The position numbers and the translations under genes were made by a program. Positions 4,741 to 47,911 of a stretch of 64,000 nucleotides of DNA are shown here, piece after piece. The notes under the pieces are model-generated. The model was not told the origin of the DNA, did no database searches, and saw nothing but the letters and a program-made list of their open reading frames with translations. How positions within the stretch are numbered: position 1 is the first letter of the stretch; every line of letters starts with the position of its first letter. The stretch is from a virus: IMG/VR virus record IMGVR_UViG_3300035193_000045. One strand, 5' to 3'.

Positions 4741-4770
4741 TAAGTTATACCTTAATTAAGGTATAACTTA
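4741..4770. promoter_or_regulatory. perfect 30-bp palindrome (ATACCTT/AAGGTAT motif family)
   Basis: TAAGTTATACCTTAATTAAGGTATAACTTA is its own reverse complement; lies just upstream of the -35 candidate of the protease promoter. Confidence 0.6.
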
Positions 4771-4817
4771 CTAATAATAAAAGAAAAACTAAAAAGAATA
4801 TTAGATATTTATAAGGT

Positions 4818-5270
4818 CTACTTATTCCAATGCATTCCGTTATCAATAGCATATGCGCAAAATTCTAAGTCCTCAGCAACTCCTTCCCAAACAGATGCCC
4901 CTTCTATTTCACCGTCTTTTCTCTCTATACGAGCATTTTTTCTATAATCTTTTGCTCGTTTTCGTAAATAATCCCCTATTTTATACCATTCAGAATGAAT
5001 TAAGCCAATAGAAGCATGTGAAATAGCTTCTGTTAAGGCTATTTTATTTTCAATAATTTTCTTAATCAAGAACACTAATTCTAACCAAATTTCTGAATTC
5101 ACTGAAGCATTTTCTAATGCTTTTTGCAAATTAGGTAATTGATCTAGCTTTGCATACTGCTGAATAGCAATTGCTTCAGCAATAAACCTCTTATCGTGTA
5201 TTTCTGGATTAACCGTATATTTACAATAGACACAGTCACAGCTATCTGTTTTTATCGCTACTCTTTTCAC
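4818..5270 (-). CDS. hypothetical protein (N-terminal KRVAIK tag)
   Basis: GTG start with AAGGAGAG 5 nt upstream; begins MKRVAIKTDSCDCVYCKY; no other motif recognised. Confidence 0.6.
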   Translation of the reverse strand: MKRVAIKTDSCDCVYCKYTVNPEIHDKRFIAEAIAIQQYAKLDQLPNLQKALENASVNSEIWLELVFLIKKIIENKIALTEAISHASIGLIHSEWYKIGDYLRKRAKDYRKNARIERKDGEIEGASVWEGVAEDLEFCAYAIDNGMHWNK

Positions 5271-5583
5271 GTAATCTCTCCTTTTTTGCTTTTATCAATT
5301 GATCCCACGTATACCACCACTCATTTAATCTTTTCATTTCTTTTCTATATAAATACTTAGCTAACCGGCATATTCTATCACATTTTTCTTTTCTATTTTG
5401 TATTTGTTTTAATCTCTTATAAACCGGTAAGTCATTAATAGACTCATAATCTTTTACTGTAATATAGGATTCTTCGTAAACCTTACCAGTATAATCGTAT
5501 AACTTATACGTTATATATTGGTAAATTACAAATGGCGTACAAGTAACAGCTATTAGAAATATATAAAATAATTTAGACATCAA
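5242..5583 (-). CDS. single-pass membrane protein downstream of the sigma factor
   Basis: N-terminal hydrophobic helix LFYIFLIAVTCTPFVIYQYI; overlaps the sigma gene stop by 11 nt, suggesting co-translation. Confidence 0.55.
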   Translation of the reverse strand: MMSKLFYIFLIAVTCTPFVIYQYITYKLYDYTGKVYEESYITVKDYESINDLPVYKRLKQIQNRKEKCDRICRLAKYLYRKEMKRLNEWWYTWDQLIKAKKERLREKSSDKNR

Positions 5584-6358
5584 ATTCCTCCATAAAGTGT
5601 TTCATTTTTCTTAATGCCAATTTTTCTTTTTGACGAATCCACTCTCGTGTATACGTTTTTCCAGTTATCTCACTCCATAAATTTCTGATATCCTCTAAGG
5701 TATATTCTTCTAAGTATCTTTTTTCAATTATAAAACGTTCGAAGTGCGGTAATTTATATAAACACTTATTTAATTCAACTGATCTTTTTTTCACTAATTT
5801 ATCTTCGGCTGATTCCTGTGGAACCATTATACTTTCTAATAGAATTTCATTACCATAATCCGAAAAACATTGATCTAATTCCCCTGTTTTATTAATCAAT
5901 GATTTTTTAAACATTAATATATTATTGTAAACAATAGTAATATCTTTAGAAGTTATGGGCATATTTGTGTTTAAATCTTCTAAAGCATTAATAATGTTGT
6001 CTAATTCCGGATTTTCTCCATGTAAATTGTAATATTTACTCCAAAATTGAATAATTTTATTTCGAAGAATATTTTTTTTATTTGGCCATTTTAAAAAAGT
6101 AAATTTGGCCTGAGAACGAGTGATACTCGCTTTTATCCAATAATACGCCCAAGTAGAAAAAGCTACGTTTTTACTAGGATCAAAAGTTTTAGCAGCCAAA
6201 AATAATCCTAGTTTACCATCTTGCAAAACGTCTTCTTTCTCCAATTCTTCTGAAAAATAAGAATGCTTTTTAACGTAATGATATACTAATTTGATATTTG
6301 CATCAAATAATTCTTGGTACGAAGGGTTTAAATGTTTATCATCTAATGATAATTCCAT
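5573..6358 (-). CDS. sigma-70 family RNA polymerase sigma factor
   Basis: Region 2-like DGKLGLFLAAKTFDPSKNVAFSTWAYYWIKASITRS and region 4 HTH-like YTLEDIRNLWSEITGKTYTREWIRQKEKLALRKMK; GGAGG 6 nt upstream. Confidence 0.8.
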   Translation of the reverse strand: MELSLDDKHLNPSYQELFDANIKLVYHYVKKHSYFSEELEKEDVLQDGKLGLFLAAKTFDPSKNVAFSTWAYYWIKASITRSQAKFTFLKWPNKKNILRNKIIQFWSKYYNLHGENPELDNIINALEDLNTNMPITSKDITIVYNNILMFKKSLINKTGELDQCFSDYGNEILLESIMVPQESAEDKLVKKRSVELNKCLYKLPHFERFIIEKRYLEEYTLEDIRNLWSEITGKTYTREWIRQKEKLALRKMKHFMEEFDV

Positions 6359-6734
6359 TTATAGCCTCCATTAATTTTGATATATCATCACTTTTATCAA
6401 TAACCGGACAATATATCCCCATTTCATGATATTTATTATCTAAAACTCGTTTTGCTAATAAGGCATCTCCTGTATATACAATAACTGAAATACCAAATCT
6501 AAATTGAGCACATTCAACAATGTTCATTCCGAAATCTTTTTCCGGACAATCCCAATCTGTTATTACCAAACTATATTTGTCATGATACCTTTCTAAATTT
6601 GAAATGCCCATGCGAGCATTCAAAACATAAGACACTTTTACATCGTTATCCTGAAAATAAAAATCTATACAACGTTTAAGCATTTTACAAATTAATGGAT
6701 CATCATCCACTATTAAGATCCTTTTCTCATCCAT
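6339..6734 (-). CDS. stand-alone response-regulator receiver (REC, CheY-like) protein
   Basis: ILIVDDD acidic pocket, LVITDWDCP phospho-acceptor Asp context, VIVYTG and IDKS motifs. Start refined to MDEKR (ATG 6734, GGAGG 6 nt upstream); the track ORF extends to 6782. The 3' end overlaps the sigma gene by 20 nt. Confidence 0.75.
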   Translation of the reverse strand: MDEKRILIVDDDPLICKMLKRCIDFYFQDNDVKVSYVLNARMGISNLERYHDKYSLVITDWDCPEKDFGMNIVECAQFRFGISVIVYTGDALLAKRVLDNKYHEMGIYCPVIDKSDDISKLMEAINGIIIR

Positions 6735-6747
6735 GAAAACCTCCTTC

Positions 6748-6960
6748 CTATTCCTTTTCCATTTTCGCGTAAATGATGTCAACTACCTTTACCAAATCCT
6801 TTATTTTACGCGGATAAAGAACTTGTATTCGCTCGTAAAGAAGTAGATCACCCGACGTCTCGTACATCAATTCCCACTTCGTTTGTTGCTCTTCTGGCAA
6901 TTGCGTAATTTGCCATTTTATATCAAAATAAGGATCTTTAATCGCCACTCGTTTCATCAC
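6748..6960 (-). CDS. hypothetical protein (N-terminal KRVAIK tag)
   Basis: Begins (M)MKRVAIKDPYFD; AAGGAGG upstream; no other motif. Confidence 0.55.
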   Translation of the reverse strand: MMKRVAIKDPYFDIKWQITQLPEEQQTKWELMYETSGDLLLYERIQVLYPRKIKDLVKVVDIIYAKMEKE

Positions 6961-6966
6961 TCCTCC

Positions 6967-7224: not shown

Positions 7225-7283
7225 TTTGACCTCCTTATTATATGCCCTACCACAAAAATTTAGAAAAGCAAAGAAAAAAACAA

Positions 7284-7307
7284 AGGTATTAAGGTATTTA
7301 AATACCT
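7284..7307. promoter_or_regulatory. AGGTATTAAGGTATTTAAATACCT operator-like motif
   Basis: Contains the perfect 16-bp palindrome AGGTATTTAAATACCT (7292-7307). The first 13 nt are identical to 29805-29817. Confidence 0.55.
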
Positions 7308-7479
7308 ATATAGCGCATTACTTTTATATTCCCCCATAAAATCTATAATAGACACGTGACCAGAAGTCATAGCTCTAATTAAATTGTCATTTATTGTATG
7401 AATGGTACGGAATGTTTTCAATTTTTAGAATGTGCCTTCGTCTATTAAATATATACGAATATTTTCTTTATTTTATATC

Positions 7480-7659: not shown

Positions 7660-7661
7660 AA

Positions 7662-7868: not shown

Positions 7869-7879
7869 TAATTAATCTC

Positions 7880-8244: not shown

Positions 8245-8568
8245 CTACACCTCACTCGTTAGCCAGGTGTCGAAATCTTTTTGATACATCGTTCTGTAAT
8301 CTATTGGCACATTGTACTTAACCCCAAACACGTGCCATTTAGCTTGAATCCAAAGTATAAAGCCACACATCTTACCGCCTGGCCATTTCATACTATCTTC
8401 TTCTAGTTGTCTGCCAGGGTTCCCCTCATTCCCATGAGCCTTACAATAGAGTAAATACCTACTACTATATTCATTACCTATTGCTATTCTTTGCATTATT
8501 ATTCTCTGCCTTTCGACTGTCATCACCCACCACGAAGTGACGGAAGAGTAGAGGTCAATGTCATTCAT
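8245..8568 (-). CDS. hypothetical protein (GC-rich island)
   Basis: 107 aa; 8-nt overlap with the upstream gene; composition visibly GC-richer than the phage background. Confidence 0.55.
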   Translation of the reverse strand: MNDIDLYSSVTSWWVMTVERQRIIMQRIAIGNEYSSRYLLYCKAHGNEGNPGRQLEEDSMKWPGGKMCGFILWIQAKWHVFGVKYNVPIDYRTMYQKDFDTWLTSEV

Positions 8569-9166
8569 GGATCATAGTCCGCGTATGCTTCTTCAGCTTA
8601 ATTGGACCAATATAGCTGGGAGGCCCAGGCCTATATGAAATCTGCGTCCAACCCGAATCGTAATCACTGCCAGGCCAATCAGTGACTACTAGATTGTGGT
8701 TACTTTCCATCTCTACCTCGTACACGTCATCGTGCTTTTTGCACGTTCCTCCCGACCGTAGAATCTCTTCCACGGCTTTAGGATCAACCTGCTCGGCCCC
8801 CCATCTCCGATGGCGCTTCCATCGCGCCACAGTTTCTTCGGGGGCTTCAAGCCATTTTCTGACCCAATCCGCCACTGTGTTGTTTTGGCGGACTGCCACA
8901 GATAACAGGTAGTCCCCCCACTCGTATAGTTCCCTCGGGTGTTTGGCGTATTCGCCTGCACCACAGACTATTCCATCCTCGTACAGAATAAGCCCTCCGA
9001 GGTTTTTACCTTCCGTCACTACATCTACCCATATGGACGCGATACCGCAACCTTCTATCCACATGGACGCATATCCATTGCAATTATGGTCTACGTCAAA
9101 AGTTAAAAATTTCCTTTTCCAATCCGGGATTCCTCCGAAGCCATATGGTTCCATATTCATCTTCAT
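8561..9166 (-). CDS. hypothetical protein (GC-rich island)
   Basis: 201 aa, Trp-rich. Hand count gives 36/60 G+C at 8761-8820 versus 10/60 at 35041-35100. Confidence 0.6.
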   Translation of the reverse strand: MKMNMEPYGFGGIPDWKRKFLTFDVDHNCNGYASMWIEGCGIASIWVDVVTEGKNLGGLILYEDGIVCGAGEYAKHPRELYEWGDYLLSVAVRQNNTVADWVRKWLEAPEETVARWKRHRRWGAEQVDPKAVEEILRSGGTCKKHDDVYEVEMESNHNLVVTDWPGSDYDSGWTQISYRPGPPSYIGPIKLKKHTRTMIHE

Positions 9167-9240
9167 CTCTCCTTTTTGTACGAGCTTTTGTACTCGATCC
9201 TACACACAAATAATTTTGTGTGTAGTACCGAAAACAAAAA

Positions 9241-9996
9241 TTACTTTGTACGCATTTCCGCTTCTGATTTCGCGAGATAATAAATATTTTTACGAATCCA
9301 GTTACGCCCAACTTCTACGCGTTCAGTTGAGCAATGATAAACTGTACGCCAGCCATATGCCCCTGGATGATTCACAATAGTTTTTCCAGAGGGAGTTGTG
9401 TGATAGCCTGAATTGCCAACTAATTTCGGTTTTTGATTTTCGCGCTTTTTCGATCCTTCTACAACGACAACATAGACATGATTTGGAGCGCCAATTCGAC
9501 GCTTAATTGCGCGGCTAACCCAGTCAATCAATTCGTCATTGGCATCTATCCCAGTAACGCTCTCCCACAACAATGCATGGATTTTTGTTTTTATACGCTC
9601 TTTTCGACGACAAGCAAGTTCTTTTTGACCGATACGTATTTCGCGTGAAAATTTTTCTTTTGCTTGAGCGTTACCAATTTTAATTCCAGCATAGTATTTT
9701 TCAGTTTTTTCTGTAATCAAGAGACCTATTTCTTTTTTTGCTTCGTGCAATTCCGCGCGCAATCGTGCAATTTCAGCGTTAAATTTCTCACCACCTTTTT
9801 GTAGTTCATCGATTGCGGCCGCAATACGCAACTCACCGTCGGCTTTTTGCTCAGACAATTGTTTTTCCATCAACTCGCAACGCTCTCTCCATTTATTAGC
9901 ACGTGCTCGCTGCCTCTCAGCCCTAATGGCCAAATCTTCTTTTGATTTCGCTTCGAAATCTCCACACATTTCAACTACTTTGTCGTAAGGTGTCAT
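9241..9996 (-). CDS. hypothetical coiled-coil protein
   Basis: 251 aa; N-terminal two thirds are heptad-like and charged (ERQRARANKWRERCELMEKQLSEQK...); the C-terminal domain is unknown. Confidence 0.6.
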   Translation of the reverse strand: MTPYDKVVEMCGDFEAKSKEDLAIRAERQRARANKWRERCELMEKQLSEQKADGELRIAAAIDELQKGGEKFNAEIARLRAELHEAKKEIGLLITEKTEKYYAGIKIGNAQAKEKFSREIRIGQKELACRRKERIKTKIHALLWESVTGIDANDELIDWVSRAIKRRIGAPNHVYVVVVEGSKKRENQKPKLVGNSGYHTTPSGKTIVNHPGAYGWRTVYHCSTERVEVGRNWIRKNIYYLAKSEAEMRTK

Positions 9997-10060: not shown

Positions 10061-10079
10061 TAATGATTTAAAGTACTTA
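10061..10079. promoter_or_regulatory. TAATGATTTAAAGTACTTA motif (copy 1)
   Basis: 18/19 identical to 47859-47877; contains the GTACTTA core seen in other intergenic gaps; lies upstream of the gene starting at 9996. Confidence 0.45.
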
Positions 10080-10363: not shown

Positions 10364-10376
10364 GCCTTTAAGTTAG

Positions 10377-10393
10377 TGCAAACGGTGTGCCAA
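10377..10393 (-). promoter_or_regulatory. sigma54-type -24/-12 promoter element A
   Basis: Minus strand reads TTGGCAC-ACCGT-TTGCA, an exact fit to TGGCAC-N5-TTGCW; predicted start is near 10366. Confidence 0.55.
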
Positions 10394-10548
10394 ATATTGA
10401 AATTTAATAAATTCAAATACTTACAAAATATAGGAATTAAAGGCTTTATGAAAACTTTGCGTAGTTAAACCATATTCTTAAGGTTTTATCACTAAAAACT
10501 TAAGTAAAACAACCATTTAGTAAACTATGCATATTTTATAAATACCTA

Positions 10549-10591
10549 TACCTTTTTGCATATATTCGATACTAATCTATGCAAAAAGGTA
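10549..10591. promoter_or_regulatory. 14-bp perfect inverted repeat in the divergent control region
   Basis: TACCTTTTTGCATA (10549-10562) / TATGCAAAAAGGTA (10578-10591) with a 15-nt spacer; about 150-215 bp upstream of both sigma54-like elements. Confidence 0.5.
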
Positions 10592-10726
10592 ATACTCTAT
10601 AAAAAAATTGCAAATATATAAAATCATTATCTTTATATAAAATTTTTAATTCAATAAACTTTTATCTACGCAAATTTTACTTTAAACGAAAATCTTAAAA
10701 CCTAAGCATATCAATACTTTTAATTT

Positions 10727-10743
10727 TTGGCATACTATTCGCA
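10727..10743 (+). promoter_or_regulatory. sigma54-type -24/-12 promoter element C
   Basis: TTGGCAT-ACTAT-TCGCA with GG-N10-GC spacing. Followed by GGCTTAAG, as in element A (AACTTAAAG), and then TAAGGAGG. Confidence 0.4.
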
Positions 10744-10763
10744 TAGGCTTAAGTAAGGAGGCA

Positions 10764-13061: not shown

Positions 13062-15432
13062 TTATATTGCCTTTAGTCCATTGTAATCTTCTAGTTACTA
13101 CAAATCTATTAATACCTTTATTCTTTTTTCGTGCTTCTTTCTTAGATTCTTTTACTGTATCAGGAATTACCAATTCTTTAACCGGTATAACGTTTTCACC
13201 AAATTGATAATCTTCTATGTCTCCATAGATACCTTTATTATCTTTTTGCTTCTTACGTTTTTTTAATTCTTCTTTGCCTATATTAAAGATTTCCTTATAC
13301 CGTATAGTTCCTCCACTACCAGGTTTCTTCACTTCTGTACCATAAAAATAATTCAATCCTAATCCTGGACCAGGGGATAAATCATAATTAGATTTATAGA
13401 TATTGCTTTTTAAATCATCCCATAATCTATATAATCTTTTATCAAATTTTTTCTTATTAGCTTCTGTTAAACTATTCAAAAAAGTTTTATCCCAAAAAGA
13501 TTTTACTTTACTATTAAAGTACTTAAAATCAGGAGAATTTCCTACTATTCTTTCAAATATATGATGTTGATTTGTATCTTTAAAATTACGAATAAATCTT
13601 TCCAATTCCCCAGCACCTTCATTCCAAAATGCATCAAATTCGGCAGATTGATTATAATATTCTTTACTATGCTCAGTTACTATGTTATGAACTTTACCAT
13701 ATCCAGCATTAAGATAATGAGATATTTCGTGAATAATAACTTTACTAGTTATTCTAGTGTCTAAATAAGTAGTATCATATGGATTCCTTAAATTAGTTAA
13801 CACTAATACATCTTTCCCATCATTAGTTTTACCAATACCATTGCCTCTAAAAACTCCTTTAGGAGTAATCAATATATGTAAATGTGATAAATTTTTATCA
13901 TTTGTAAATTGATTTGCCTGTATATAAACATTTCCATTTGAATCAAATTGCAAATTATCTTTATTATCCTTTACCCAACTAATTAATTCATCATAAAAAT
14001 TACTAGCTTTATTTCTCATTGATAAATTAGGATCTTTATAAGGTATAGTATGCTCAGCATTTGCCCATTTACCACCTTTAGGTCCTATGAATAAGGCTTT
14101 ATTTATTTCCTCTCTGTCTATGCCTACCCCACACCATCTTTTAAAAGCTTCGACATCCATAGAACTACAATCATAAATAAAATCATCCGGATTATCGTAA
14201 TTCATTCTATAGACATTTAATGCATGTTCTTCATTCCTAAAACCAAGCATACATTTTTGTTCATCATATAATTCATTATCAGGATTCTTTTGATCAATTA
14301 TATAAACTACAGGTGAATCTTTAAATGGTCCAACAAATACATCTAACTCTTCTTCATCCATAGAAGTGGTTCGTTTTACAAAACCATAAGATGCGCCGTA
14401 CATAATGGTTTCCCCTATTGAACCATCTCCATTAATCCATTTACGCTTATCCCCTTTTGGAGTTTCGATAGCAATAGGAATTCCTTGAAAAACTATATTA
14501 GCCTTAGCCTTTAAGGATTTATAAAAAAGATTTTCTTCAATTAAAGCCTTTTCTAATTCTTCAGGCTCTTGATAGATTTCCCCCAATTTACCTCCTGGTA
14601 CTAAATCACCTTCTTCATTAAATCCCCATCCCTTTGGAACACTAATCATGCTGCATACACAATTAGGATGAATTGGACCAACTACAACTTGCCAATCATT
14701 TTGTTTACGTCCTACATTACTCCCATGTTCTTCTAATGTAGATAATTTAAATATCCTAGGCTGCCCATCTGGACCAATATGTAAACGAATACAATGTTTA
14801 CATGCCCCTGGATTAGGTATACGCGCAACATAAACATCTTCTCCATACTTTTTTCTAAGGTAATCTGCTTGCCCTTGCTGTGTTGAATACATTATCTCAG
14901 TTACAGCAATTCGTTTCATATCCCTAGCCCAATCCCCAGTAGACCAACCTAAATCACTTCTAAGCTTTTCGATACTCTCTCTTCTTGCAGCATTTAAAGC
15001 AGTAAGATTTTTTATCTTATCCTCATACGCAATTCGAAATCTTTGATCTGCTTCTATCAAAGTTCTTCCCGTATCTTTTTCAATTACATTTCCTAATCCC
15101 ATACAATATTGTCCCGCATTTACTTGCGCCATACGAACAGCTCTTTGTTGCATTTGCGTTAACGGTTGTGGATTTTTTTGAATATAATCTTCAAATCTAT
15201 TATATGACATCTGTGAAGCTTGAGGACTATTTAATTTACCAAGCACTTGTCCGTATTCATATATTTTCTTAATAAGGTCCTTTGACTCTTTATTCAATAA
15301 CCCTTTATCTCGTAATTCATCAATCACTTCATCAGGTAACGCGTCATGACCAATTGTATTAGCTATAAATGCATTATGATGTAATTCAATTATATCTTGG
15401 ATTTCTAATATTTGATCAGGAGTTAACGGCAT
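13048..15432 (-). CDS. polyvalent head-morphogenesis protein (MuF/SPP1 gp7 domain + PPase-like region + HExxH zincin)
   Basis: CKHCIRLHIGPDGQPRIFKL...IHPNCVCSM is the MuF/gp7 signature. YGFVKRTTSMDEEELDVFVGP resembles inorganic pyrophosphatase. ALFIGPKGGKWANAEHTIPYKD is a shared module. VIIHEISHYLN is an HExxH motif. Confidence 0.75.
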   Translation of the reverse strand: MPLTPDQILEIQDIIELHHNAFIANTIGHDALPDEVIDELRDKGLLNKESKDLIKKIYEYGQVLGKLNSPQASQMSYNRFEDYIQKNPQPLTQMQQRAVRMAQVNAGQYCMGLGNVIEKDTGRTLIEADQRFRIAYEDKIKNLTALNAARRESIEKLRSDLGWSTGDWARDMKRIAVTEIMYSTQQGQADYLRKKYGEDVYVARIPNPGACKHCIRLHIGPDGQPRIFKLSTLEEHGSNVGRKQNDWQVVVGPIHPNCVCSMISVPKGWGFNEEGDLVPGGKLGEIYQEPEELEKALIEENLFYKSLKAKANIVFQGIPIAIETPKGDKRKWINGDGSIGETIMYGASYGFVKRTTSMDEEELDVFVGPFKDSPVVYIIDQKNPDNELYDEQKCMLGFRNEEHALNVYRMNYDNPDDFIYDCSSMDVEAFKRWCGVGIDREEINKALFIGPKGGKWANAEHTIPYKDPNLSMRNKASNFYDELISWVKDNKDNLQFDSNGNVYIQANQFTNDKNLSHLHILITPKGVFRGNGIGKTNDGKDVLVLTNLRNPYDTTYLDTRITSKVIIHEISHYLNAGYGKVHNIVTEHSKEYYNQSAEFDAFWNEGAGELERFIRNFKDTNQHHIFERIVGNSPDFKYFNSKVKSFWDKTFLNSLTEANKKKFDKRLYRLWDDLKSNIYKSNYDLSPGPGLGLNYFYGTEVKKPGSGGTIRYKEIFNIGKEELKKRKKQKDNKGIYGDIEDYQFGENVIPVKELVIPDTVKESKKEARKKNKGINRFVVTRRLQWTKGNINEVP

Positions 15433-17568: not shown

Positions 17569-20500
17569 AGTTTTTCAGAAGCACCTACATTCTTTGCCCA
17601 TTGCTCAAATACCATTGGATGGATATAACTAGCCTTTGCAATACTAGGAGTATTGTTCAATATTGTAGCTACTTTTTTACTTGTTTCCAACAACGCTTTA
17701 GCTAATAATCGTTTATCCTTTTTACTATCCCCGGTTAATGGAGGAGGAGTGTCAACTTCTTTTAATAATCTTTCAGCTGATTCCGTAGCCTTAATTGTTC
17801 TAAGGTCTTTTACTTTCATTCCTTTAGGAAGTATATTTTTTCCAATATCTAAAGCATTAGGATTAAATATATTACTATCTTCAGTAGCATTCCTTACATA
17901 ATACTCTAAGGCTTTTAATGTTACAGGATTCTGAACCACTGTAACATTCTTCTTACCTTCTTTACCAATAAAGTTTAAAACAGCCATTTTATTATTTAAA
18001 GCAATGTGATCCTTTTTTAAAGTACTTATACCGTAGTGACCATGCTTTTTAACACTTTCCATACTACCTGGACGTAATCCTGTTTCTGCAATAATAGCTA
18101 ATATAGTATGGCCTTGATGATCAATGCTACCAGGTTTTTCCTTAATTAATTTTTCATTCAATGTATTCACAATTTCTTTTTTCTTACTTCTAAATTTATT
18201 AATTCTATCCCATTTTTTCTTAGCATTTATTTCATGAAATTTTGGAGTATACCCACTTTGAACTTTCCCCTTAGTGTCTTTCCAAGTAATAATTGCTTTA
18301 CTATTTATATCACCAGAAAAATCTACTCTTACATCTGAAGCCGGAATAGTGGCTTGTGGTAACTTATCCACTTTTAATTCTTTTAATTTAGCTTGTACTT
18401 TACCAGGCAATTGAGAACCCGGAGGTTCCCTCTTAATAGGTTTATTTTCTACTTCATCTTTATAAGGTATAGTATGCTCAGCATTTGCCCATTTACCACC
18501 TTTAGGTCCTATGAATAAGGCTTTACGTAAATCAGATTCATTGATCGTAAAACCTTTTCTTATTTTAACTATTCCTGGATCTCCTTCTAGTATTGTAGCG
18601 TTGATACCTTGCTCACGTAAATTATTCATAGCTATTTTAGCATCATCTACGTCTATAGAAAAATTAGTTTGGTAGACATCATGGATATCGTCAGAAGCAA
18701 CTTTTTTAAGTTTTATATTCTTAGCGGAAACATAAGCTAAACTAGATTCCGCTTCTTTTACATTTTGCGGTTTTGATGGCCTTCCCCTACCTTGCTTAAC
18801 AGGTTCCTCTTTTATAGCTTCTCGTTTAAATGTAAGAGGTGGCTCTTTAATAGCCACTCGAGTCATTTTGTTCTTAGAACCAGGAGGTCTCCCTCGTTTC
18901 TTCTTTTCAGGCTCTTGAATAACCATTGAAGGAATAGCAACTCTTTTAATGTTTTTTGATCCAGGAGGTCTTCCACGTTTCTTTTTTTCAGGTTCTTGTT
19001 CAATTACTTCCTTAATTGGTTCCCTTATAACAAAAGCTAGTTTTTGTTCTTCTTGTTTAGGAACCTCTATGGGAATAACAGGAACATCGGGTTTATCTTC
19101 TTTAATAGGTAATTCCTTATTTTCTTCTATAGGCGTTTTACCTCCATGAATTTTATTCAATATATCACTGACGGTTAAGGGCTTATTCATCCATGCAATT
19201 TCTTCCTGCGTCAGCTTCTTTCCCTGATTTACTTTTTTAGATAATTCATATTTCCTTTTAATTATCTCCGTAACTGAAGAATCAAATAAATTATTAGAAG
19301 CGGTAACCCAATAAACATTTACGTTATTCTTTTGTCCAATTCTGTGTGCTCTATCCTCTGCTTGGCGCAAATCAGCAGCAGTCCAAGGTAAATCATTAAA
19401 AATAACTTTATCAGCAGCAGTTAAAGTAGCTCCTACAGCCATTGATTGGCGAGTAGTTATAAATACTCGTTTAGGAGAAACAAAATCACCGTTACCATCT
19501 GTTTTTTGAAACTCTTCCTTTACTGCTTCCCTTTTATCATCACTCATTTGTCCATGATGCAATAAGGAAATATTACCTAATTCTTCATGAATCTTTTTAG
19601 CTGCATCAACTGAATCAGTAAATACTATTATTTTTGAATCAGATGAATCTAATATCTCTTTAGCCAAATCAATAGTAGCAGGAACCTTTCCGATCGCTAC
19701 AGCAGCTTTAATTTTAGCAATTTCACCAATATCTTTATTTGCACCATAATCGGGTAAATTAGGTATGTCTTGTTGAATAATAGAAGTAACTTTTTCAGGT
19801 AAATCTTTTAAAACCTCTTCCTTACTCCTCGCAATATAGAAATCCTTCATATCACGCCAAAGTCCGCCAATAGTAGCAAATTTTATTTGATTTTTAGACG
19901 TAAATTTACCAGGTGCAACAACTTCCAACTGAGTAAATAATTCTTCTTTTTTATTTTTAACCGCCGTTCCAGACAATAGAATATGATGCTTTACTAATGC
20001 CGATACCTTTTGAATTGCTTTTGTCTGTTTAGCTTTAGGATTCTTCATCCTATGCGATTCATCAACCACTACTGTATCAAAACCAGCATCCTTTAAATAA
20101 GGATAAAACTTATTCAAAGATTCATAATTAACAGTTACAAGGTTCTTATCTTTAAGGTTTGGAACTCTATTATTTCTTATATCAGAAGATACTAATTCAG
20201 TTCCTTTAAACTGTCCTGGAAAAAACTTATCCGCTTCTTGTAGCCAAGTACGCCTTACTACTTTCGGAACAACTAAAATTGTTTTCTTATTTCCTTTAGC
20301 TAACCAAGCCAAAGTTTCAAGCGTCTTTCCAAGACCCATAGAATCCCCAATCAAAGCATTTCCATTTGTTTTATCTAAAAAATGAACTGCTTCATTTTGA
20401 TAAGGAAATAATGAATATTTACTGTCTAATAATTTCTGTACTTCAGGAATTGGCTTTTGTAATTCAGCTTGGTATCTCGCTTTTTCATTTTGTGCTTCTT

Positions 20501-22115
20501 TTAAGCCTTCTTCATCTATATATAACTTATAATTAGGCAATTGCTTCTTTATCTGTTGCAATGCTTCTTCTACTAAATTCAGTTCATGCGTTTCTCTAGC
20601 CCAATTATTGTCTTTATTTGCATAAAAAATACCAGACAATCCACCAGTTTTATTGGAAAATAAATCATTAAACTCTGAAGAATAGGTAGACCAAAAAGCA
20701 AATTTATCTTTACCTATTTTCTTAAGAACAATTGCATCTTTAATTCTTCTATCTTTAATGCTTTGCAAAGCTTCATCTACAGTAAGGTCCTTTTCATCTT
20801 TTTCAGATACTTTTTGTTTTCGTTCCCCCTTAATTGGATGAACTTTTATACCTATTTCCCCCATATCCTTCCTATAAGATTCAAAATCAAAATCATCTAA
20901 ATATTGTTCTTTAATAAAGTTCTCGCCGTTACTAAACCATACGTTGTATTTTTTATTAATGTCTCGAAACTTGCTAAAAGTTTCTCTATCAACCCTTCCA
21001 TCTACTGGAAGAGTGAGGCTCCCCCAAGTTTTATTGTAATAAGGTTTAATATCCGCTTTATAACCCTTACCTTCTCTTGTATCTGCTAATCCTAATTTAT
21101 GGTATTCTTCAATGCTATAGGCACCAACTATTTGACGTTTATATTTTTGAAGTAATTGCCGCTTTGCATTTACACCAGTTACAGATCTCCATCTGTCCAT
21201 ATCTACATAACTAAATCCAGTGTCGTCTTTTTCACGAGGATTAATTGCTTGATGACTATATAAAGCTTCACCTATTCTATCTAAAATTTGTTCAGCTTCT
21301 TCGTCACTATACCGTTCTTTAGTTTCTGAATAACTATGTACTTCGTCTTTCCAAGGTATAGTGTGTTCTGGATCAGCCCATTTACCTCCACGTGGACCGA
21401 TAAATGGGCCTTTTTGTGCTTTATTTAAAGCTTCATTGTAGTCTTCAATATAGGAATCTGTATCTATATCATAATGAAAATATGATATACCTTCATCTTC
21501 CCCTTTATTTAATCCATCTACTCTAATACCCGTATTGGGTTTAATTTGAATAGCTCGGTCATCCCAAAGTTCAGCCATATGCAGATCTTTTTCGTATACT
21601 ACCGGTAATTCTTCTCCAATATATTTTTTGCACCATTTCTTTATAGCGGTAATAGATGCTCTAAAATCACTAGAATTTGGATTTGCTCTAGCAGTCATAA
21701 TTTTTACATTTTTATTATTGGCAATCCATTCCTTAACTCTATCAACCATTTTAGGAATTGGCTTACCAATAGAAGCAGAGCCTTTATATTCATGGTATTC
21801 CGCTAATGTCCCATCTAAATCAACGCCAATCCAAGAAGGATTGGAACCAAGACTCTTATTTAATTTTCCCTTATCTAATACTTTACTTATATCCGCAAGC
21901 ATCATATTAGTTTGGTCTTTATAACCTATTTCCCATTGCTTTAATACTTCTAATAGAACTGGATCAGTAAACAATTTATCTTTATCATCTATAGCTTTAA
22001 TTAAACGATTCTTTAAATCAAAATCTACTTCCCCAATGTAATCAGCAATAGATTTTACTAAAGAAACTCTTTTAGAAAAAAGTTCTTCCTTATTTGCTTC
22101 TATTTGTATACGCAT
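17550..22115 (-). CDS. giant polyvalent protein: HAD phosphatase-like + SNF2 helicase + AT-hooks + type IB topoisomerase-like domain
   Basis: HAD: GVDLDGTL / MTAR / LWDDRA. SNF2: GDSMGLGKT, VVVDESHRMKN, LLSGTAVKN, QAEDRAHRIGQ. AT-hooks: two KKKRGRPPGSKN plus GRGRPSKP. Topo IB: LNFIGKEGKKNVTVV, VKDLRTIKAT, LNNTPSIAKASYIHP (Tyr codon 17625-17627). Also two FIGP[RK]GGKWA modules. Confidence 0.85.
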   Translation of the reverse strand: MRIQIEANKEELFSKRVSLVKSIADYIGEVDFDLKNRLIKAIDDKDKLFTDPVLLEVLKQWEIGYKDQTNMMLADISKVLDKGKLNKSLGSNPSWIGVDLDGTLAEYHEYKGSASIGKPIPKMVDRVKEWIANNKNVKIMTARANPNSSDFRASITAIKKWCKKYIGEELPVVYEKDLHMAELWDDRAIQIKPNTGIRVDGLNKGEDEGISYFHYDIDTDSYIEDYNEALNKAQKGPFIGPRGGKWADPEHTIPWKDEVHSYSETKERYSDEEAEQILDRIGEALYSHQAINPREKDDTGFSYVDMDRWRSVTGVNAKRQLLQKYKRQIVGAYSIEEYHKLGLADTREGKGYKADIKPYYNKTWGSLTLPVDGRVDRETFSKFRDINKKYNVWFSNGENFIKEQYLDDFDFESYRKDMGEIGIKVHPIKGERKQKVSEKDEKDLTVDEALQSIKDRRIKDAIVLKKIGKDKFAFWSTYSSEFNDLFSNKTGGLSGIFYANKDNNWARETHELNLVEEALQQIKKQLPNYKLYIDEEGLKEAQNEKARYQAELQKPIPEVQKLLDSKYSLFPYQNEAVHFLDKTNGNALIGDSMGLGKTLETLAWLAKGNKKTILVVPKVVRRTWLQEADKFFPGQFKGTELVSSDIRNNRVPNLKDKNLVTVNYESLNKFYPYLKDAGFDTVVVDESHRMKNPKAKQTKAIQKVSALVKHHILLSGTAVKNKKEELFTQLEVVAPGKFTSKNQIKFATIGGLWRDMKDFYIARSKEEVLKDLPEKVTSIIQQDIPNLPDYGANKDIGEIAKIKAAVAIGKVPATIDLAKEILDSSDSKIIVFTDSVDAAKKIHEELGNISLLHHGQMSDDKREAVKEEFQKTDGNGDFVSPKRVFITTRQSMAVGATLTAADKVIFNDLPWTAADLRQAEDRAHRIGQKNNVNVYWVTASNNLFDSSVTEIIKRKYELSKKVNQGKKLTQEEIAWMNKPLTVSDILNKIHGGKTPIEENKELPIKEDKPDVPVIPIEVPKQEEQKLAFVIREPIKEVIEQEPEKKKRGRPPGSKNIKRVAIPSMVIQEPEKKKRGRPPGSKNKMTRVAIKEPPLTFKREAIKEEPVKQGRGRPSKPQNVKEAESSLAYVSAKNIKLKKVASDDIHDVYQTNFSIDVDDAKIAMNNLREQGINATILEGDPGIVKIRKGFTINESDLRKALFIGPKGGKWANAEHTIPYKDEVENKPIKREPPGSQLPGKVQAKLKELKVDKLPQATIPASDVRVDFSGDINSKAIITWKDTKGKVQSGYTPKFHEINAKKKWDRINKFRSKKKEIVNTLNEKLIKEKPGSIDHQGHTILAIIAETGLRPGSMESVKKHGHYGISTLKKDHIALNNKMAVLNFIGKEGKKNVTVVQNPVTLKALEYYVRNATEDSNIFNPNALDIGKNILPKGMKVKDLRTIKATESAERLLKEVDTPPPLTGDSKKDKRLLAKALLETSKKVATILNNTPSIAKASYIHPMVFEQWAKNVGASEKLWKEVG

Positions 22116-29149: not shown

Positions 29150-29220
29150 TTTATATTTCCTTTCATTTAGGTATTAAAGTACTTAATTATACCTTAATAC
29201 TATTCCTCTAAATATTTTAC
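29129..29220 (-). repeat. 92-bp promoter/5' cassette, copy A
   Basis: 89/92 identical to 29765-29856. Spans the first 7 codons, the RBS and the AGGTATTAAAGTACTTAATTATACCT motif (29169-29194). Confidence 0.9.
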
Positions 29221-29224
29221 ATAT

Positions 29225-29785
29225 CTAGTCTACCCACCCACAAGTACAAATAATAGAAATAGGAACATCTATAATGATAGGAGAGGATGTGTCCAATTTA
29301 CAATTAACCCATTTACCATTATTAGGATCATTCTTATTTGACCAATAATCTGCATTCTCACATATATAATCAGCTATTATTAAAACCTCTTGAATATCGT
29401 CTTCTTCATCTATATTTACGTAATGCCTATGTGCTTTCTCTAAAAGCTCAATATCTTTTTTTGTAGGATTTTTTATAAGACACAAAGTAGGTGAATTTTC
29501 AGAAGTAACCCAAACAAGTAAAACATTATAATCTGCTAAGGTAAACGCTCCTAGGCTTTCTGCTGCACGTATATTTAATTCCTCAACAGGAATTTGAAGA
29601 AATCTCGCAATGCTTTCATTTTGAGTATCACTAAATGGAAATTGTTTAGCTCGCTCAATATCTGATACAGATGTAACTGACACTTTCAATGTTCTTGCAA
29701 GATCTCCAAGAGTTTTACCTTTTTTCTTTCTTTCCTCACGAAGGTATTCTCCATACAATCTTTTAGTGACATTTTTAATCAACAT
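29225..29785 (-). CDS. XRE-family HTH transcriptional regulator with unknown C-terminal domain
   Basis: KKGKTLGDLARTLKVSVTSVSDIERAKQFP is a typical Cro/CI-type HTH; 186 aa. Confidence 0.75.
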   Translation of the reverse strand: MLIKNVTKRLYGEYLREERKKKGKTLGDLARTLKVSVTSVSDIERAKQFPFSDTQNESIARFLQIPVEELNIRAAESLGAFTLADYNVLLVWVTSENSPTLCLIKNPTKKDIELLEKAHRHYVNIDEEDDIQEVLIIADYICENADYWSNKNDPNNGKWVNCKLDTSSPIIIDVPISIICTCGWVD

Positions 29786-29856
29786 TTTCTATTTCCTTTC
29801 TTTTAGGTATTAAGGTACTTAATTATACCTTAATACTATTCCTCTAAATATTTTAC
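29765..29856 (-). repeat. 92-bp promoter/5' cassette, copy B
   Basis: See copy A. Contains TATAAT on the minus strand within AAGGTATAATTAAGTACCTT. Confidence 0.9.
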
Positions 29857-29879
29857 GGCAAAATGGAGGTATTGTCTAT

Positions 29880-29926
29880 AAAAAAGTGCCCTTGGTAGGA
29901 GGAAAGGAGACTCACTACCAAGGGCA
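29880..29926 (-). terminator. intrinsic terminator (12-bp stem + U6)
   Basis: TGCCCTTGGTAG / CTACCAAGGGCA (29887-29898 / 29915-29926). The minus strand continues CTTTTTTATAG. Confidence 0.6.
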
Positions 29927-29963
29927 ACCCCAACAAGGTATACAGGAGGTCCACGAAGTGGCT
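29880..29963 (-). ncRNA. candidate ~85-nt sRNA with CCUCC (anti-SD-like) motifs
   Basis: Minus-strand TTGTTA (29997-29992), 16 nt, TATATT (29975-29970), then CCAC-UUC-GUGG, ACCUCCU, and a terminator hairpin whose loop reads UCUCCUUUCC. No ORF of 60 aa or more. Confidence 0.3.
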
Positions 29964-30127
29964 ATCTATAATATAGCCCTTTTTTAAAAATTAACAACAC
30001 TGAGGAAGCAATTGTGCAATAGCAATAATTGCATCTACCTGAGTAGCAAGGTCAGTATGATTGTTAAAGTGGATTTAACCCATACACCACATCAACAATA
30101 ATTTCAATACAAATCTTTATTAAAGAT

Positions 30128-30182
30128 GAAAAATAGATAAACCACTCCCTAAATCAACCATGCCGATATAATTTAGGGAGTG
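30128..30182 (-). terminator. hairpin terminator candidate after gene 30275-30502
   Basis: CACTCCCTAAAT / ATTTAGGGAGTG (30143-30154 / 30171-30182), 16-nt loop. The minus strand continues GTTTATCTATTTTTC. Confidence 0.45.
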
Positions 30183-30274
30183 TAACCCAAGGAGAAGAAA
30201 AGGACATATGACATTAATTAATGTAACACCTATTGATAAATAAACAACTTAACTAATCATCTATTTACAATCCA

Positions 30275-38890: not shown

Positions 38891-38921
38891 ATACCTAAAT
38901 GTATTTAGGTATTTAAGTACC
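38891..38921. promoter_or_regulatory. ATACCTAAAT-GT-ATTTAGGTAT palindrome plus AGGTATTTAAGTACC
   Basis: 10-bp arms with a 2-nt spacer (38891-38912), overlapping a GTAC-type half-site (38907-38921), in the 114-nt intergenic gap. Confidence 0.55.
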
Positions 38922-42623: not shown

Positions 42624-42649
42624 TATTTAGGTATTTAAATACCTAAATA
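42624..42649. promoter_or_regulatory. perfect 26-bp palindrome TATTTAGGTATTTAAATACCTAAATA
   Basis: Self-complementary; 16 nt upstream of the ATG at 42608; abutted on the minus strand by TATAAT (42654-42649). Confidence 0.6.
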
Positions 42650-42694
42650 TTATAAACCACCTCATTTACAGTATACGGCATTTTGCCGGTATAT

Positions 42695-42976
42695 TCAAGC
42701 ACTACTAAGAATTAAGGCTTCACAATGCTTAGCCACTCTATACGTAAAATCCGGATTGCCTCTAGCTCTTTGCATAATACTAATAATTTTATAAATAGAA
42801 ATACTAGATGTTCTGCCTAATTTTTTGTGTTCTAATTTTACAGCTTCGTAAACACGAATAGTTTCTAACAATTTCCATTCATCGGAAATTCTATTTTTCC
42901 GATACCTCATTTCGTCTGTTAAAACTAATTGAATACGTCTTGCAATACCCTCCTCAGTAATTTGAAATGATTGCAT
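42695..42976 (-). CDS. hypothetical protein
   Basis: 93 aa; no motif recognised. Confidence 0.5.
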   Translation of the reverse strand: MQSFQITEEGIARRIQLVLTDEMRYRKNRISDEWKLLETIRVYEAVKLEHKKLGRTSSISIYKIISIMQRARGNPDFTYRVAKHCEALILSSA

Positions 42977-43310: not shown

Positions 43311-44135
43311 TTACCTATTTCCTTTCATAACCCCCCTTCTCAAAACTGGATTCCACAAATTCAATTTAACCTCCCCTAATCCTTTGCAATTATAACACGT
43401 ACTATAGTACGGTTTATCATCAGACCTAATTTCCACTTGGCCAGATCCTTGACAATTTTTGCATACTACCCCTATTTTGTTCTTTCCAGGGATTATACGC
43501 ATCCTATACAATTTTTTAATACGTAATTTATTATGAGATAAAAGCTCTGTAAAGGACATCCATTTCGTTTTATCTCTGCTCATTATATAAGATTCAATAT
43601 CTTGCATAGTGACATTTTCTTTAAAATTAATATCACAAAATTTATTAATAGGATAAAACCTCCCTGACCCATTGCAAACTTTACATTCAATTTCAGTATG
43701 ATGCTCTGATTTACGATATTTTCCCGTGCCGTTACAATACCGACAAGCATAGGAAAATAACCCTACACCATTACAAGTAGGACATTCTCCAGTACCCAAT
43801 ACTTGCCCTCTATCATGATATATATGATATCCTTTTCCTGAACAGACATCACAAGACCCGACATCTATCTCTGTAGTGGGGAAACCTTTCCCTAATGACA
43901 CAACTAAATCCCCCTCAATAGTCCTATCCGAGATAGATGTATTAATTCCCAATTCTTTTATTTTCTCAAACAAAAATTCATATGCCGATGTTAGCTCAAT
44001 AAAAGCTGTTTCACTCCCCCCACAATCCGGATGCCTTTGCATAGACAATTTGCGAAATACAGATTTCAATTCCGCATTATCCTGAAAAAAACCTTCTTTC
44101 TTTTCAAAAACCCTTAACGCGTGTGTTAGATCCAT
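43311..44135 (-). CDS. DnaJ-like co-chaperone (J domain + six CxxCxGxG zinc-finger motifs)
   Basis: J-domain with HPD (FRKLSMQRHPDCGG). CDVCSGKG, CPTCNGVG, CRYCNGTG, CKVCNGSG, CKNCQGSG, CYNCKGLG. Confidence 0.8.
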   Translation of the reverse strand: MDLTHALRVFEKKEGFFQDNAELKSVFRKLSMQRHPDCGGSETAFIELTSAYEFLFEKIKELGINTSISDRTIEGDLVVSLGKGFPTTEIDVGSCDVCSGKGYHIYHDRGQVLGTGECPTCNGVGLFSYACRYCNGTGKYRKSEHHTEIECKVCNGSGRFYPINKFCDINFKENVTMQDIESYIMSRDKTKWMSFTELLSHNKLRIKKLYRMRIIPGKNKIGVVCKNCQGSGQVEIRSDDKPYYSTCYNCKGLGEVKLNLWNPVLRRGVMKGNR

Positions 44136-45384: not shown

Positions 45385-45385
45385 C

Positions 45386-45706: not shown

Positions 45707-45720
45707 ACTGTTTATCCTTT

Positions 45721-46492: not shown

Positions 46493-46503
46493 TTTAGTAT
46501 CCC

Positions 46504-47031
46504 TTATAATGCGCTTTGCGGACAAGATGCCCCACAAGGCTTTCCATCTATGTGTACGCCTCCTCCTCGGGTATAGTATCTTCCACGCGGAAAGGATTCT
46601 AGCGCATCATGATCTGACTCGTTCACTCTTTCTGTGTCAGTCATTCTTAGATGTGTAATAGCATCATTAATGATTTCTATTGGTATATTCATCACGGACG
46701 CAATATTTCGAATCTCTATTACATCTAGTGCGGAAATATTCCAATTTCCGTCACTTAATACGTAATGAGATCCAGAACTAGAACGTGCTTGAGGCCCCAC
46801 GTAATCTTTTACGAGATCACATGCTACGTAGAACATGCGATCGTCGTCTATATTTAAATATACAAACCATCCCCCCTGTTCACGAGTTACAGAGTGACCA
46901 AATTGGTCAATCCATTTTTCGTCAATTTTTTCAGGAAGAATATCTCCCCATGTCGAATCTATTATGCAATCTTCGATGAAGATTGGCAGGGGACCAATTT
47001 TAATTTCGTGGGAGTTAACTTCTTTACACAT
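46504..47031 (-). CDS. hypothetical protein (GC-richer island)
   Basis: 175 aa; GAGGAG 5 nt upstream of the ATG at 47031. Confidence 0.55.
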   Translation of the reverse strand: MCKEVNSHEIKIGPLPIFIEDCIIDSTWGDILPEKIDEKWIDQFGHSVTREQGGWFVYLNIDDDRMFYVACDLVKDYVGPQARSSSGSHYVLSDGNWNISALDVIEIRNIASVMNIPIEIINDAITHLRMTDTERVNESDHDALESFPRGRYYTRGGGVHIDGKPCGASCPQSAL

Positions 47032-47474
47032 GACATCTCCTCTTTGAGTTGTTTATTCTCGTATGCTATGTTTGATAGCAAACATTCCCGCTCATATGAG
47101 AGGCGTACCGAATTACGAGCTAGTTGTTCTTCTTTATACGCAGCATGCCAATATGAACGAGCTTGGCTTAATTCTTTTTCAGCACGATCTTTACAGACCA
47201 TATACTCTCGTCTTACCCGAGAGTTTTCCTTTTTAAGTAATCTAATTTCATCTTCATTTTGTTGCTTGTTGTGAGATAATCGCGACAACGTCTCAGATAG
47301 TTTTTCTACATTCTCCTGAGAGGTCAAGAGATTGTCGTTAATGCTTTTAATGTCAATCACAAGATCATCTACGATTGACATTGCATCCTCAAGATGTTTT
47401 GATGCTTTATTTGTGGCGCCCAACTCAAGAAATTCTATTGCTAGAGCAAGAGAATTATGTAATTTGTTAATCAT
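46962..47474 (-). CDS. coiled-coil hypothetical protein
   Basis: 170 aa, heptad-rich; 70-nt overlap with the downstream gene. Confidence 0.55.
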   Translation of the reverse strand: MINKLHNSLALAIEFLELGATNKASKHLEDAMSIVDDLVIDIKSINDNLLTSQENVEKLSETLSRLSHNKQQNEDEIRLLKKENSRVRREYMVCKDRAEKELSQARSYWHAAYKEEQLARNSVRLSYERECLLSNIAYENKQLKEEMSCVKKLTPTKLKLVPCQSSSKIA

Positions 47475-47543
47475 CTCTATTTCCTTTACCTTCCGGCACC
47501 CTTCACCGCCCGCCTCAAGGGAGACAAGCGGGATGTGGGTCAG

Positions 47544-47798
47544 CTAGTCCGCCCACCCATCAAGCTCTCGCTGGATAGCCCCCTCGGACATCCCACCCAT
47601 GGTGAGAGCTAGTTCAGTTGCGTACCGCGCGGTGCAGGCATCATTGGTCATCCCGTCAACCGCTTCGAGACTGCCGACGTACCATGTGCCCTCGCAATAA
47701 TTCATCGCGCCGCCAAGTATCCGAAAATCTTCCAGTGCCTTGTCAAAGTCTTTGTACGCTTTCATTTTCCTTCTCCTTTGTTGTGTTTCAGTGTTCAT
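47544..47798 (-). CDS. hypothetical protein in a GC-rich island, behind sigma54-like promoter B
   Basis: The likely start is ATG 47765 (MKAYKDF; AAGGAG upstream). Hand count gives 37/60 G+C at 47521-47580. Confidence 0.55.
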   Translation of the reverse strand: MNTETQQRRRKMKAYKDFDKALEDFRILGGAMNYCEGTWYVGSLEAVDGMTNDACTARYATELALTMGGMSEGAIQRELDGWAD

Positions 47799-47811
47799 AC
47801 CCTTATGTTAG

Positions 47812-47828
47812 TGCAAACGGGATACCAA
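47812..47828 (-). promoter_or_regulatory. sigma54-type -24/-12 promoter element B
   Basis: Minus strand reads TTGGTAT-CCCGT-TTGCA. The downstream leader of about 50 nt is roughly 85% identical to that of element A. Confidence 0.5.
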
Positions 47829-47858
47829 AACAAGTAAATAAGGTTAAAAAATAAAAAC

Positions 47859-47911
47859 TAATGATTTAAGGTACTTAAAAATAGTATTTAGGTAAGTATA
47901 TACCTAAATAC
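47859..47911. promoter_or_regulatory. TAATGATTTAAGGTACTTA motif (copy 2) plus 11-bp-arm inverted repeat
   Basis: 47859-47877 matches 10061-10079. GTATTTAGGTA (47884-47894) / TACCTAAATAC (47901-47911) with a 6-nt spacer. Confidence 0.5.

Follow-up and report, generated by a model that had tools for sequence, protein, structure and literature searches.

A recurrent intergenic palindrome in a distant SPO1-like phage as a candidate operator of a dimeric regulator

When the same short palindrome stands ahead of one operon after another in a phage genome, the question arises of which molecule reads it, and of whether it is read as DNA or as RNA. This question is raised by IMG/VR record IMGVR_UViG_3300035193_000045, a viral stretch of 64,000 nucleotides (hereafter, the window), in which a first-pass annotation had noticed AGGTAT and ATACCT half-sites in palindromic arrangement in about nine intergenic gaps, and had ascribed them to a regulon governed either by a dimeric DNA-binding protein, an XRE-family protein encoded in the window being the candidate, or by the phage sigma factor. 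The motif is genuine and statistically solid, and narrower than first described; what it marks is best regarded as a small regulon whose dyad sites lie close to promoters and are borne on portable promoter cassettes. Judging from the sequence comparisons presented here, the explanation that fits best, which is held tentatively and a little short of an even chance, is that the palindromes are operators for one phage-encoded dimeric helix-turn-helix DNA-binding regulator; the XRE protein would be the most likely binder, a proposal to which somewhat less confidence again is attached.

The two hexamers are poor markers of intergenic DNA, since AGGTAT occurs 39 times and ATACCT 57 times in the window, mostly within coding DNA; an intergenic enrichment is still present, 11 and 9 of these copies, respectively, lying in the clearly non-coding 3.6% of the window. 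The specificity is found in a longer half-site, ATT(T/A)AGGTA, of which 14 exact copies are present against 3.65 ± 1.8 expected from dinucleotide shuffles; 13 of them lie outside same-strand open reading frames (ORFs) of at least 60 aa, a fraction amounting to only 9.5% of the sequence, and are distributed over seven intergenic loci. The concern that the motif might be equally frequent inside genes does not hold for the extended half-site, which is strongly intergenic; the hexamers are mostly coding, with the intergenic enrichment just given. In an unbiased screen, the k-mers that most favour intergenic over coding DNA were TACCTTAA (8 of 11 copies intergenic), TACCTAAA (7 of 12), ATTTAGGTA and ATTAAGGTA (6 of 7 each). 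As to arrangement, when AGGTA and TACCT are paired in every orientation (inverted, everted or direct) at distances of 0–20 nt, N6 is the sole enriched inverted spacing: strict AGGTA-N6-TACCT is observed three times against about 0.05 expected, and the looser RGTA-N6-TACCT 11 times against 0.89, the latter pattern having been defined post hoc, once the sites had been seen. The shuffles and the contrast between intergenic and coding DNA rule out chance or AT-richness as the origin of the motif, and the early impression that nearly every sizeable gap carries it was roughly right, in that about seven of the roughly ten true non-coding gaps of at least ~75 nt do so.

The seven loci, designated here by the letters A to G, are collected in Table 1 together with the neighbouring promoters and the two transcription proteins. 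The unit shared across sites is a 9-nt arm; the inverted N6 layout is the commonest, and the layout is not uniform. Read in the direction of the genes, site C is ATTTAGGTAT-TTAA-ATACCTAAAT, site E is ATTTAGGTA-TATACT-TACCTAAAT, the everted part of site D is ATACCTAAAT-AC-ATTTAGGTAT, and sites A and B follow the scheme ATTAAGGTA-TAATTAAG-TAC(C/T)TTAAT, then TACCTAAA. Sites A and B arose by one recent 92-nt duplication (97% identity) comprising promoter, palindrome, ribosome-binding site and seven codons, and are therefore counted as one independent site.

Table 1. Positions of the palindromic sites, of the predicted promoters beside them and of the two transcription proteins of the window.
Feature	Position	Strand	Description
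Site F	4741..4770	-	Perfect 30-bp palindrome, everted TACCT-TAATTA-AGGTA; the -35 element of the head-gene promoter follows 20 nt downstream
Site G	7284..7307	-	AGGTATTTAAATACCT then TAATACCT; in a 255-nt gap ahead of the operon running from 7224 to 4818
Site A	29165..29198	-	Near-copy of B, one of its arms being degenerate (TACTTTAAT); precedes a 66-aa ORF (28949-29149)
Site B	29801..29834	-	ATTAAGGTA-TAATTAAG-TACCTTAAT plus TACCTAAAA; overlaps TATAAT, directly upstream of the XRE gene
Site D	38891..38921	-	Three half-sites: inverted N6 TGGTAC-TTAA-ATACCT overlapping everted AATACCTAAAT-AC-ATTTAGGTATT
Site C	42624..42649	-	Perfect 26-bp palindrome TATTTAGGTAT-TTAA-ATACCTAAATA; 3 nt upstream of the ribosome-binding site, gene start 42608
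Site E	47884..47911	-	GTATTTAGGTA-TATACT-TACCTAAATAC; stem extendable to ~18 bp, then TATTTTT; heads the operon starting at 47765/47798
Head-gene promoter	4693..4720	-	Sigma-70-type, TTGACA-16-TACATT; operon of prohead protease, scaffold and major capsid protein; conserved in relatives L001, L002 and L003
Promoter upstream of site B	29850..29878	-	Sigma-70-type, TAGACA-17-TAAAAT; preceded by a strong GC-rich intrinsic terminator; conserved in the closest relative
Promoter P1 of the C cassette	42670..42698	-	Sigma-70-type, TTGAAT-17-TATACT; small CGGCA/TGCCG hairpin inside the spacer
XRE-family protein	29225..29785	-	186 aa; N-terminal helix-turn-helix and uncharacterised ~100-aa C-terminal domain
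Phage sigma factor	5573..6358	-	Sigma70_r2 4e-13, Sigma70_r4 6e-5; in the operon headed by site G

All the strings quoted in the first-pass annotation are present within at most 1 nt of the positions given for them (ATACCTATACCT lies at 10542-10553 instead of 10543-10554), and the loci beginning at 4741, 7284, 29165, 29801, 38891, 42624 and 47884 are genuine; the remaining strings, three sites in two of the nine groups listed, do not belong to the family. The strings TAATGATTTAA[A/G]GTACTTA at 10061 and 47859 are part of a separate common segment of ~23 nt without a second good half-site, the 10061 copy being absent from the closest relative, and ATACCTATACCT falls within a 31-nt stretch that is deleted there. 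The common segment itself, TAAGTAC(C/T)TTAAATCATTAGTTTT, at 10061-10079 and 47859-47877, has no dyad; one of its copies precedes a leader and the other follows a gene, and the segment may represent a recombination joint.

Since the scans for sigma-70-type promoters were not enriched over shuffles, single matches were trusted only where they are conserved, and all promoter placements are to be read as predictions. In the gaps of C and A/B, the only sigma-70-type promoters that are conserved lie 17–25 nt upstream of the palindromes. The palindromes themselves are 3–8 nt upstream of the ribosome-binding site, which would place them at about +20 to +30 from the likely start. Site D is found 22 nt upstream of a TATAAT without a -35 element, the centre of its N6 dyad being at about -42; for E and G, the sigma-70 scans gave no convincing promoter. 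The operon headed by G encodes a CheY-like receiver-domain protein and the phage sigma factor; the gene of the former (6339-6782; Response_reg 1e-5, below the Pfam cut-off) is immediately upstream of the sigma gene and overlaps it. As to the head-gene promoter, the leader of ~70 nt that separates it from the prohead protease start (4620-4692) is conserved in four phages, L001, L002 and L003 included, with apparent paired substitutions around CCTGTGCGAAAAGCACGATTGG, and may be a structured RNA leader.

The phage that carries these sites has a G+C content of 32% in the window, with nearly all genes on the minus strand; encoded here are a DNA polymerase, a UvsX-like recombinase, SbcCD, the large terminase, the portal, the prohead protease and the major capsid protein. 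The last is ~38% identical to that of SPO1-group Herelleviridae, the terminase is 35% identical to that of Bacteroides phages, and the sigma factor is ~30% identical to those of various phages. Given a capsid protein of such low identity, and no nucleotide match to the window in 50,697 phage records, the phage is taken to be an uncultured, distant SPO1-like one. It has the look of a lytic, SPO1-like phage; no integrase came up in the window ORFs scanned, a scan that was not aimed at integrases in particular. The closest relative is IMG/VR contig 3300031369_000001, of 102.6 kb and 85–92% nucleotide identity, recovered as four overlapping loci; the phage genome itself measures ~103 kb, of which ~38% lies outside the window. 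Other relatives, shorter and more distant, are L001 and L003 from IMG/VR and L206, L223, L232, L234, L243 and L253 from the metagenome scan.

The most informative comparison is that of the ~90-nt C cassette, which is found in L206, L223 and L253 between unrelated upstream and downstream genes. Counting changes across the window, the closest relative and these three loci, none was found in the 29 nt of the P1 promoter, none in the 20 nt of the two 10-nt arms and none in the 13-nt ribosome-binding-site stretch, as opposed to 7 of 21 in the linker (the next 21 nt after the promoter) and 3 of 4 in the 4-nt centre; the difference between the arms (0/20) and the centre plus linker (10/25) has p=0.001. 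The spacers vary among sites and relatives as well (TTTAAA, CTTAAA, TATACT, TTTATT; at site C, TTAGTA/TTAGCA in L206/L253 and L223), their length and the arms being kept, and the inverted N6 spacing of C, E, G and D also holds in relatives. In these alignments, arm sequence and spacer length are constrained and spacer sequence is free.

In the closest relative, site C is identical, and site D shows a perfect GGTAT-TTAA-ATACC together with a perfect everted palindrome; site E reads ATTTAAGTA-TATACT-TACCTAAAT, with AAGTA in one arm, site G is degenerate (AGGTATTTAAATACTA), site F has one arm mismatch (TACGT), and a single copy of A/B is present, in the A version, with the small ORF and then XRE downstream. 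Copies of site E are also found in L234, with identical arms, and in L001, as ATTTAGGTA-TTTATT-TACCTAAAT, in a different genomic context; at the position of site G, L001 has TATAAT-C-AAGTACCTTAATACGT, and at that of site F, L001 and L003 have other palindromes, which yet contain ATTTAGGTA or AAGTA. The arms are identical across loci with unrelated flanks, which argues for a sequence-specific reader rather than for a structure that merely needs to fold. In the left half, the variant AAGTA is found repeatedly opposite TACCT (at A and B, at E of the closest relative and at G of L001), a combination that would give an A·C mismatch if read as RNA.

Wider scans returned little beyond these relatives. 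A 14-base version of the palindrome gave only single chance matches in a collection-wide scan, and an 18-base version gave 50 single matches in the GTDB genomes and zero multi-site genomes, so that no sign of a host regulon is seen; the metagenome scan for the palindrome yielded mostly chance matches and five useful relatives, the scan for the A-type cassette pattern matched only the two relatives already known, and no such motif was found in the distant capsid relatives L004-L017. A triple half-site layout like that of site D, ATACC-TATTTAGGTA-TAGCAG-TACCTAAATA, was observed in non-coding DNA of a phage contig of higher G+C content from the same series of samples (L022, 6662-6694; IMGVR_UViG_3300031364_000069), which is unrelated and without protein similarity to the window.

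As for the reader, of ~100 window ORFs scanned the XRE protein alone is recognisable as a sequence-specific DNA binder, the sigma factor being the only other transcription protein. It matches the profiles HTH_31 (2e-8) and HTH_3 (6e-7) and transcriptional repressor families of PHROGs, and its relatives in the Protein Data Bank (PDB) are DdrO, ClgR and SinR. DdrO, ClgR and SinR are dimers that bind palindromic operators. The XRE operon itself carries a site: in the window, B directly precedes the XRE gene, which in the closest relative is second behind the single site. Searches for contigs encoding XRE homologues and for loci related through XRE gave none.

The C-terminal 106 residues of the XRE protein (81-186; 29228-29545) have 28 remote homologues at E<1e-3, nearly all of them standalone proteins of 94-111 aa, and the domain is also found repeated within a 1404-aa protein; no Pfam family matches it. 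The surrounding segment (28949-29785 and 29786-30274), compared with L023 (7501-9442), shows that, with respect to this close relative, the small ORF and the XRE gene have changed places in the window phage. The first seven codons of the small ORF are fused onto the window XRE gene, and a 303-aa gene has been lost, only its last ~20 codons being left; the small ORF also contains a 48-nt tandem repeat (28963-29058).

In the mechanism proposed, each subunit of the regulator would read one half-site ATT(T/A)AGGTA, and the preferred site would be ATTTAGGTA-N6-TACCTAAAT, in which the AGGTA cores are 11 bp apart, that is, about one helical turn. The sites would act within short units of promoter, leader and ribosome-binding site heading the main leftward operons of the region: at E, C and D three blocks of small orphan genes, at A/B the XRE operon, which continues into the portal and head genes, at G the operon of the sigma factor, and at F that of the head genes. 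By binding at or just downstream of the promoters, as at C and A/B, XRE would probably shut these operons down, its own included, and thereby provide a temporal switch; at D and F (the latter at about -70), it could instead assist RNA polymerase. The symmetry, the helical-turn spacing, the constrained arms, the free spacer and the occurrence of the same arms in unrelated flanks together argue for a sequence-specific dimeric reader, and we infer that the element acts as DNA rather than as RNA. The regulon of a dimeric DNA-binding protein suggested at the outset is the best fit to the dyad symmetry, to the contrast between arms and centre and to the adjacent promoters; the link to XRE is circumstantial and the arrangement of the sites heterogeneous.

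Similar arrangements are known. The operators of phage repressors of the XRE/Cro/CI type (lambda/434/P22, Xre of the PBSX prophage, SinR-type) are dyads of 16-24 bp whose half-sites are separated by about one helical turn, as in the inverted N6 layout here. They are located at or just downstream of promoters, as predicted for C and A/B, and, as here, have the regulator gene behind its own site and an HTH_3/HTH_31 protein as the binder (binding being a prediction in the present case). Unlike those sets, which are clustered in one immunity region, the present sites span at least 43 kb and six operon heads, in a lytic-looking phage, with heterogeneous half-site layouts and a protein whose C-terminal domain belongs to an uncharacterised family. 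Dispersed sites of activators or repressors that define a temporal class of lytic or late transcription are the TGT-N12-ACA sites of P2 Ogr/P4 Delta, the Mu C sites, the T4 MotA boxes and the phi29 p4 sites, in each of which one phage protein recognises one short motif at every promoter of the class, at a fixed position (about -55, -35 or -30). Here, too, one motif is repeated, at the heads of operons; its position with respect to predicted promoters, by contrast, ranges from about -70 to about +30.

Several observations weigh against the operator reading. The range of positions with respect to the predicted starts is one of them, and the geometry of the half-sites is another, being inverted with N6 at C, E, G and D and with N8/N16 at A/B, and everted with N6 at F and with N10 at D, so that a single rigid dimer would not read all sites equally well. 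The link to XRE is one of position and of the lack of other candidates, with ~38% of the genome lying outside the window and most ORFs having no recognisable fold; the protein has, among 5.8 billion proteins, one cluster of homologues besides itself, the whole comprising the window protein and one relative, and its predicted structure (pLDDT 37) is unusable and was not used. The closest relative, in which identity is 0.90 at the half-sites and 0.86 at other intergenic positions (p=0.25), is too similar to inform. Finally, a free centre between constrained arms fits an RNA stem-loop equally well, and the change from A to B (T to C) turns a G·U pair into G-C on the sense strand.

These last points bear on an alternative that we regard as rather unlikely, in which the palindromes act as RNA, as stem-loops in 5' leaders or intercistronic regions; they would serve for processing by the host RNase III or as 5'/3' stabilisers, or would be bound by a translational regulator beside the ribosome-binding site. 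The palindromes of C and A/B, placed as they are between promoter and ribosome-binding site, would indeed be transcribed; the predicted hairpins beat shuffles at C (-10.4 kcal/mol, z -3.0), E (-16, z -4.4), F (-18.6, z -7.9) and A (-11.4, z -3.3), that of G being weak (-6.2 kcal/mol, z -1.4), and inverted and everted layouts alike still fold into hairpins. A precedent exists in the same broad phage group, namely the early mRNA of the SPO1-like phage SP82, in which recurrent, similar intercistronic hairpins are sites for Bacillus subtilis RNase III (Panganiban & Whiteley 1983; Mitra & Bechhofer 1994; both as cited in PMC4838370). The likeness lies in the recurrence of sequence-similar hairpins, SP82 being compared by the description in that source and not by sequence; unlike the SP82 sites as described there, the present stems are mostly of 11-12 bp and show sense-strand mismatches in relatives, at E of the closest relative and at G of L001. 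The stems of C, D and A, at 10-12 bp, are short for RNase III, those of E and F extending to ~18-20 bp; none of the stems shows a compensatory double change, D lies upstream of its only plausible -10 hexamer, and a purely structural role would leave the presence of the same 9-10-nt arm sequence at unrelated loci unexplained. No match to Rfam was found, nor any known RNA family or tRNA. A role as intrinsic terminators was discarded, since only E fits, C, D, A, G and F having no T-run and AT-rich stems.

It is less probable still that the palindromes are chiefly mobile cassettes insulating transcription, in the manner of the promoter-early stem-loops (PeSLs) of the T4-type phages RB49 and phi1 (Arbiol et al. 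2010, PMC2839356), with the repeat as a recombination joint that shuffles orphan genes and with no need for an operator role. Much in the comparison speaks for mobility: the C cassette is kept between unrelated genes, the E cassette occurs in another context in L001, the homology with the closest relative stops on both sides of the D cassette, and the A/B duplication has swapped gene order and fused seven codons onto XRE beside the deleted 303-aa gene. The likeness extends to the design: a sigma-70-type promoter, a stem-loop and a Shine-Dalgarno sequence are packed into one short intergenic stretch before blocks of orphan genes, clearly so at C and A/B and less so at D, E and G. The position of the stem-loop relative to the promoter varies, as it does for PeSLs (PMC2839356), and there are clear cases of cassettes at rearrangement junctions and in new contexts. 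PeSLs, however, have GC-rich stems, work as terminators and number ~50 per genome, whereas seven copies are found here in 64 kb, with AT-rich stems, a specific 9-nt arm, a U-tract only after E and separate GC-rich terminators, for instance upstream of B. Moreover, the 4 of 7 sites that lie within 100 nt of a synteny break, against 20% at random, are not significant once A and B are merged, and indels are common everywhere in these orphan-gene regions. Mobility of this kind is, in any case, compatible with an operator role.

By far the least probable of the alternatives, and rejected here on symmetry and variable spacing, is that the motif is a promoter read by the phage sigma factor, as the first-pass annotation had also proposed. 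A sigma factor is indeed encoded in the window, and copies of the motif fall within promoter regions, several of them directly beside -10-like hexamers. The elements are symmetric, though, with perfect palindromes that give no orientation, and their halves are 6, 8, 14 or 16 nt apart rather than at the fixed 16-18 nt of a promoter; the distance to the -10-like hexamers and to the start codons is variable, one site heads the sigma operon itself and would have to be read before any sigma factor exists, and the head-gene promoter beside F is of the ordinary type.

To return to the operator reading, should it be correct, one small protein would gate most leftward operons of the ~103-kb phage, those of the sigma factor and head genes included, and a compact regulatory map would become available for an uncultured SPO1-like lineage without a cultured member. 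Repeated palindromic sites for a phage regulator are already well known, so that the finding is a useful annotation and not a surprise. A further and quite speculative proposal, to which a low probability is given, is that this Herelleviridae-like lineage carries portable cassettes of promoter, operator and ribosome-binding site, comparable to the PeSLs of T4-type phages, in which the palindrome would be both the operator of an XRE-type master regulator and a homology patch for orphan-gene swaps; gene blocks arriving with or behind such a cassette would then join the temporal programme at once, as would the sigma-factor operon. The ~90-nt cassettes between unrelated genes offer a second example, in another phage group, of the shuffling of regulatory cassettes first described in T4-type phages.

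A few features of the same gaps and of the neighbouring genes were observed in passing. A second type of palindrome, TTTTTGCATA...TATG(C/T)AAAAA, occurs in two paralogous regulatory regions, the gap of site E (47925-47960) and the divergent gap 10364-10763 (10560-10600), and is kept in the closest relative. Two paralogous leaders, TTTGG.A..CCGTTTGCACTAAC.TAA.GG (10364-10394 and 47799-47829), with an identity of 75% over 83 nt, stand ahead of small genes that are unrelated to each other, and the same block is found in L001; the N-termini MNxETxQ assigned there by the ORF finder are probably untranslated leader. The 74-nt gap between the genes at 9241-9996 and 8561-9166 holds an imperfect inverted repeat (9186-9239) with 25-nt arms, 84% complementary, and a 4-nt loop, unrelated to the motif. 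A DnaJ-like protein, with a J-domain match and CXXCXGXG zinc-finger repeats (DnaJ_CXXCXGXG 1e-10), is encoded at 43311-44135. Lastly, an 80-nt repeat is found at 14033-14112, 18457-18536, 21346-21425 and 27215-27294, within three very large ORFs (794, 1521 and 766 aa), two of its copies being 100% identical; it encodes the conserved peptide (K/P)FIGP(K/R)GGKWA(N/D)xEHTIP(Y/W)KD, perhaps a targeting or processing signal common to virion-associated proteins.

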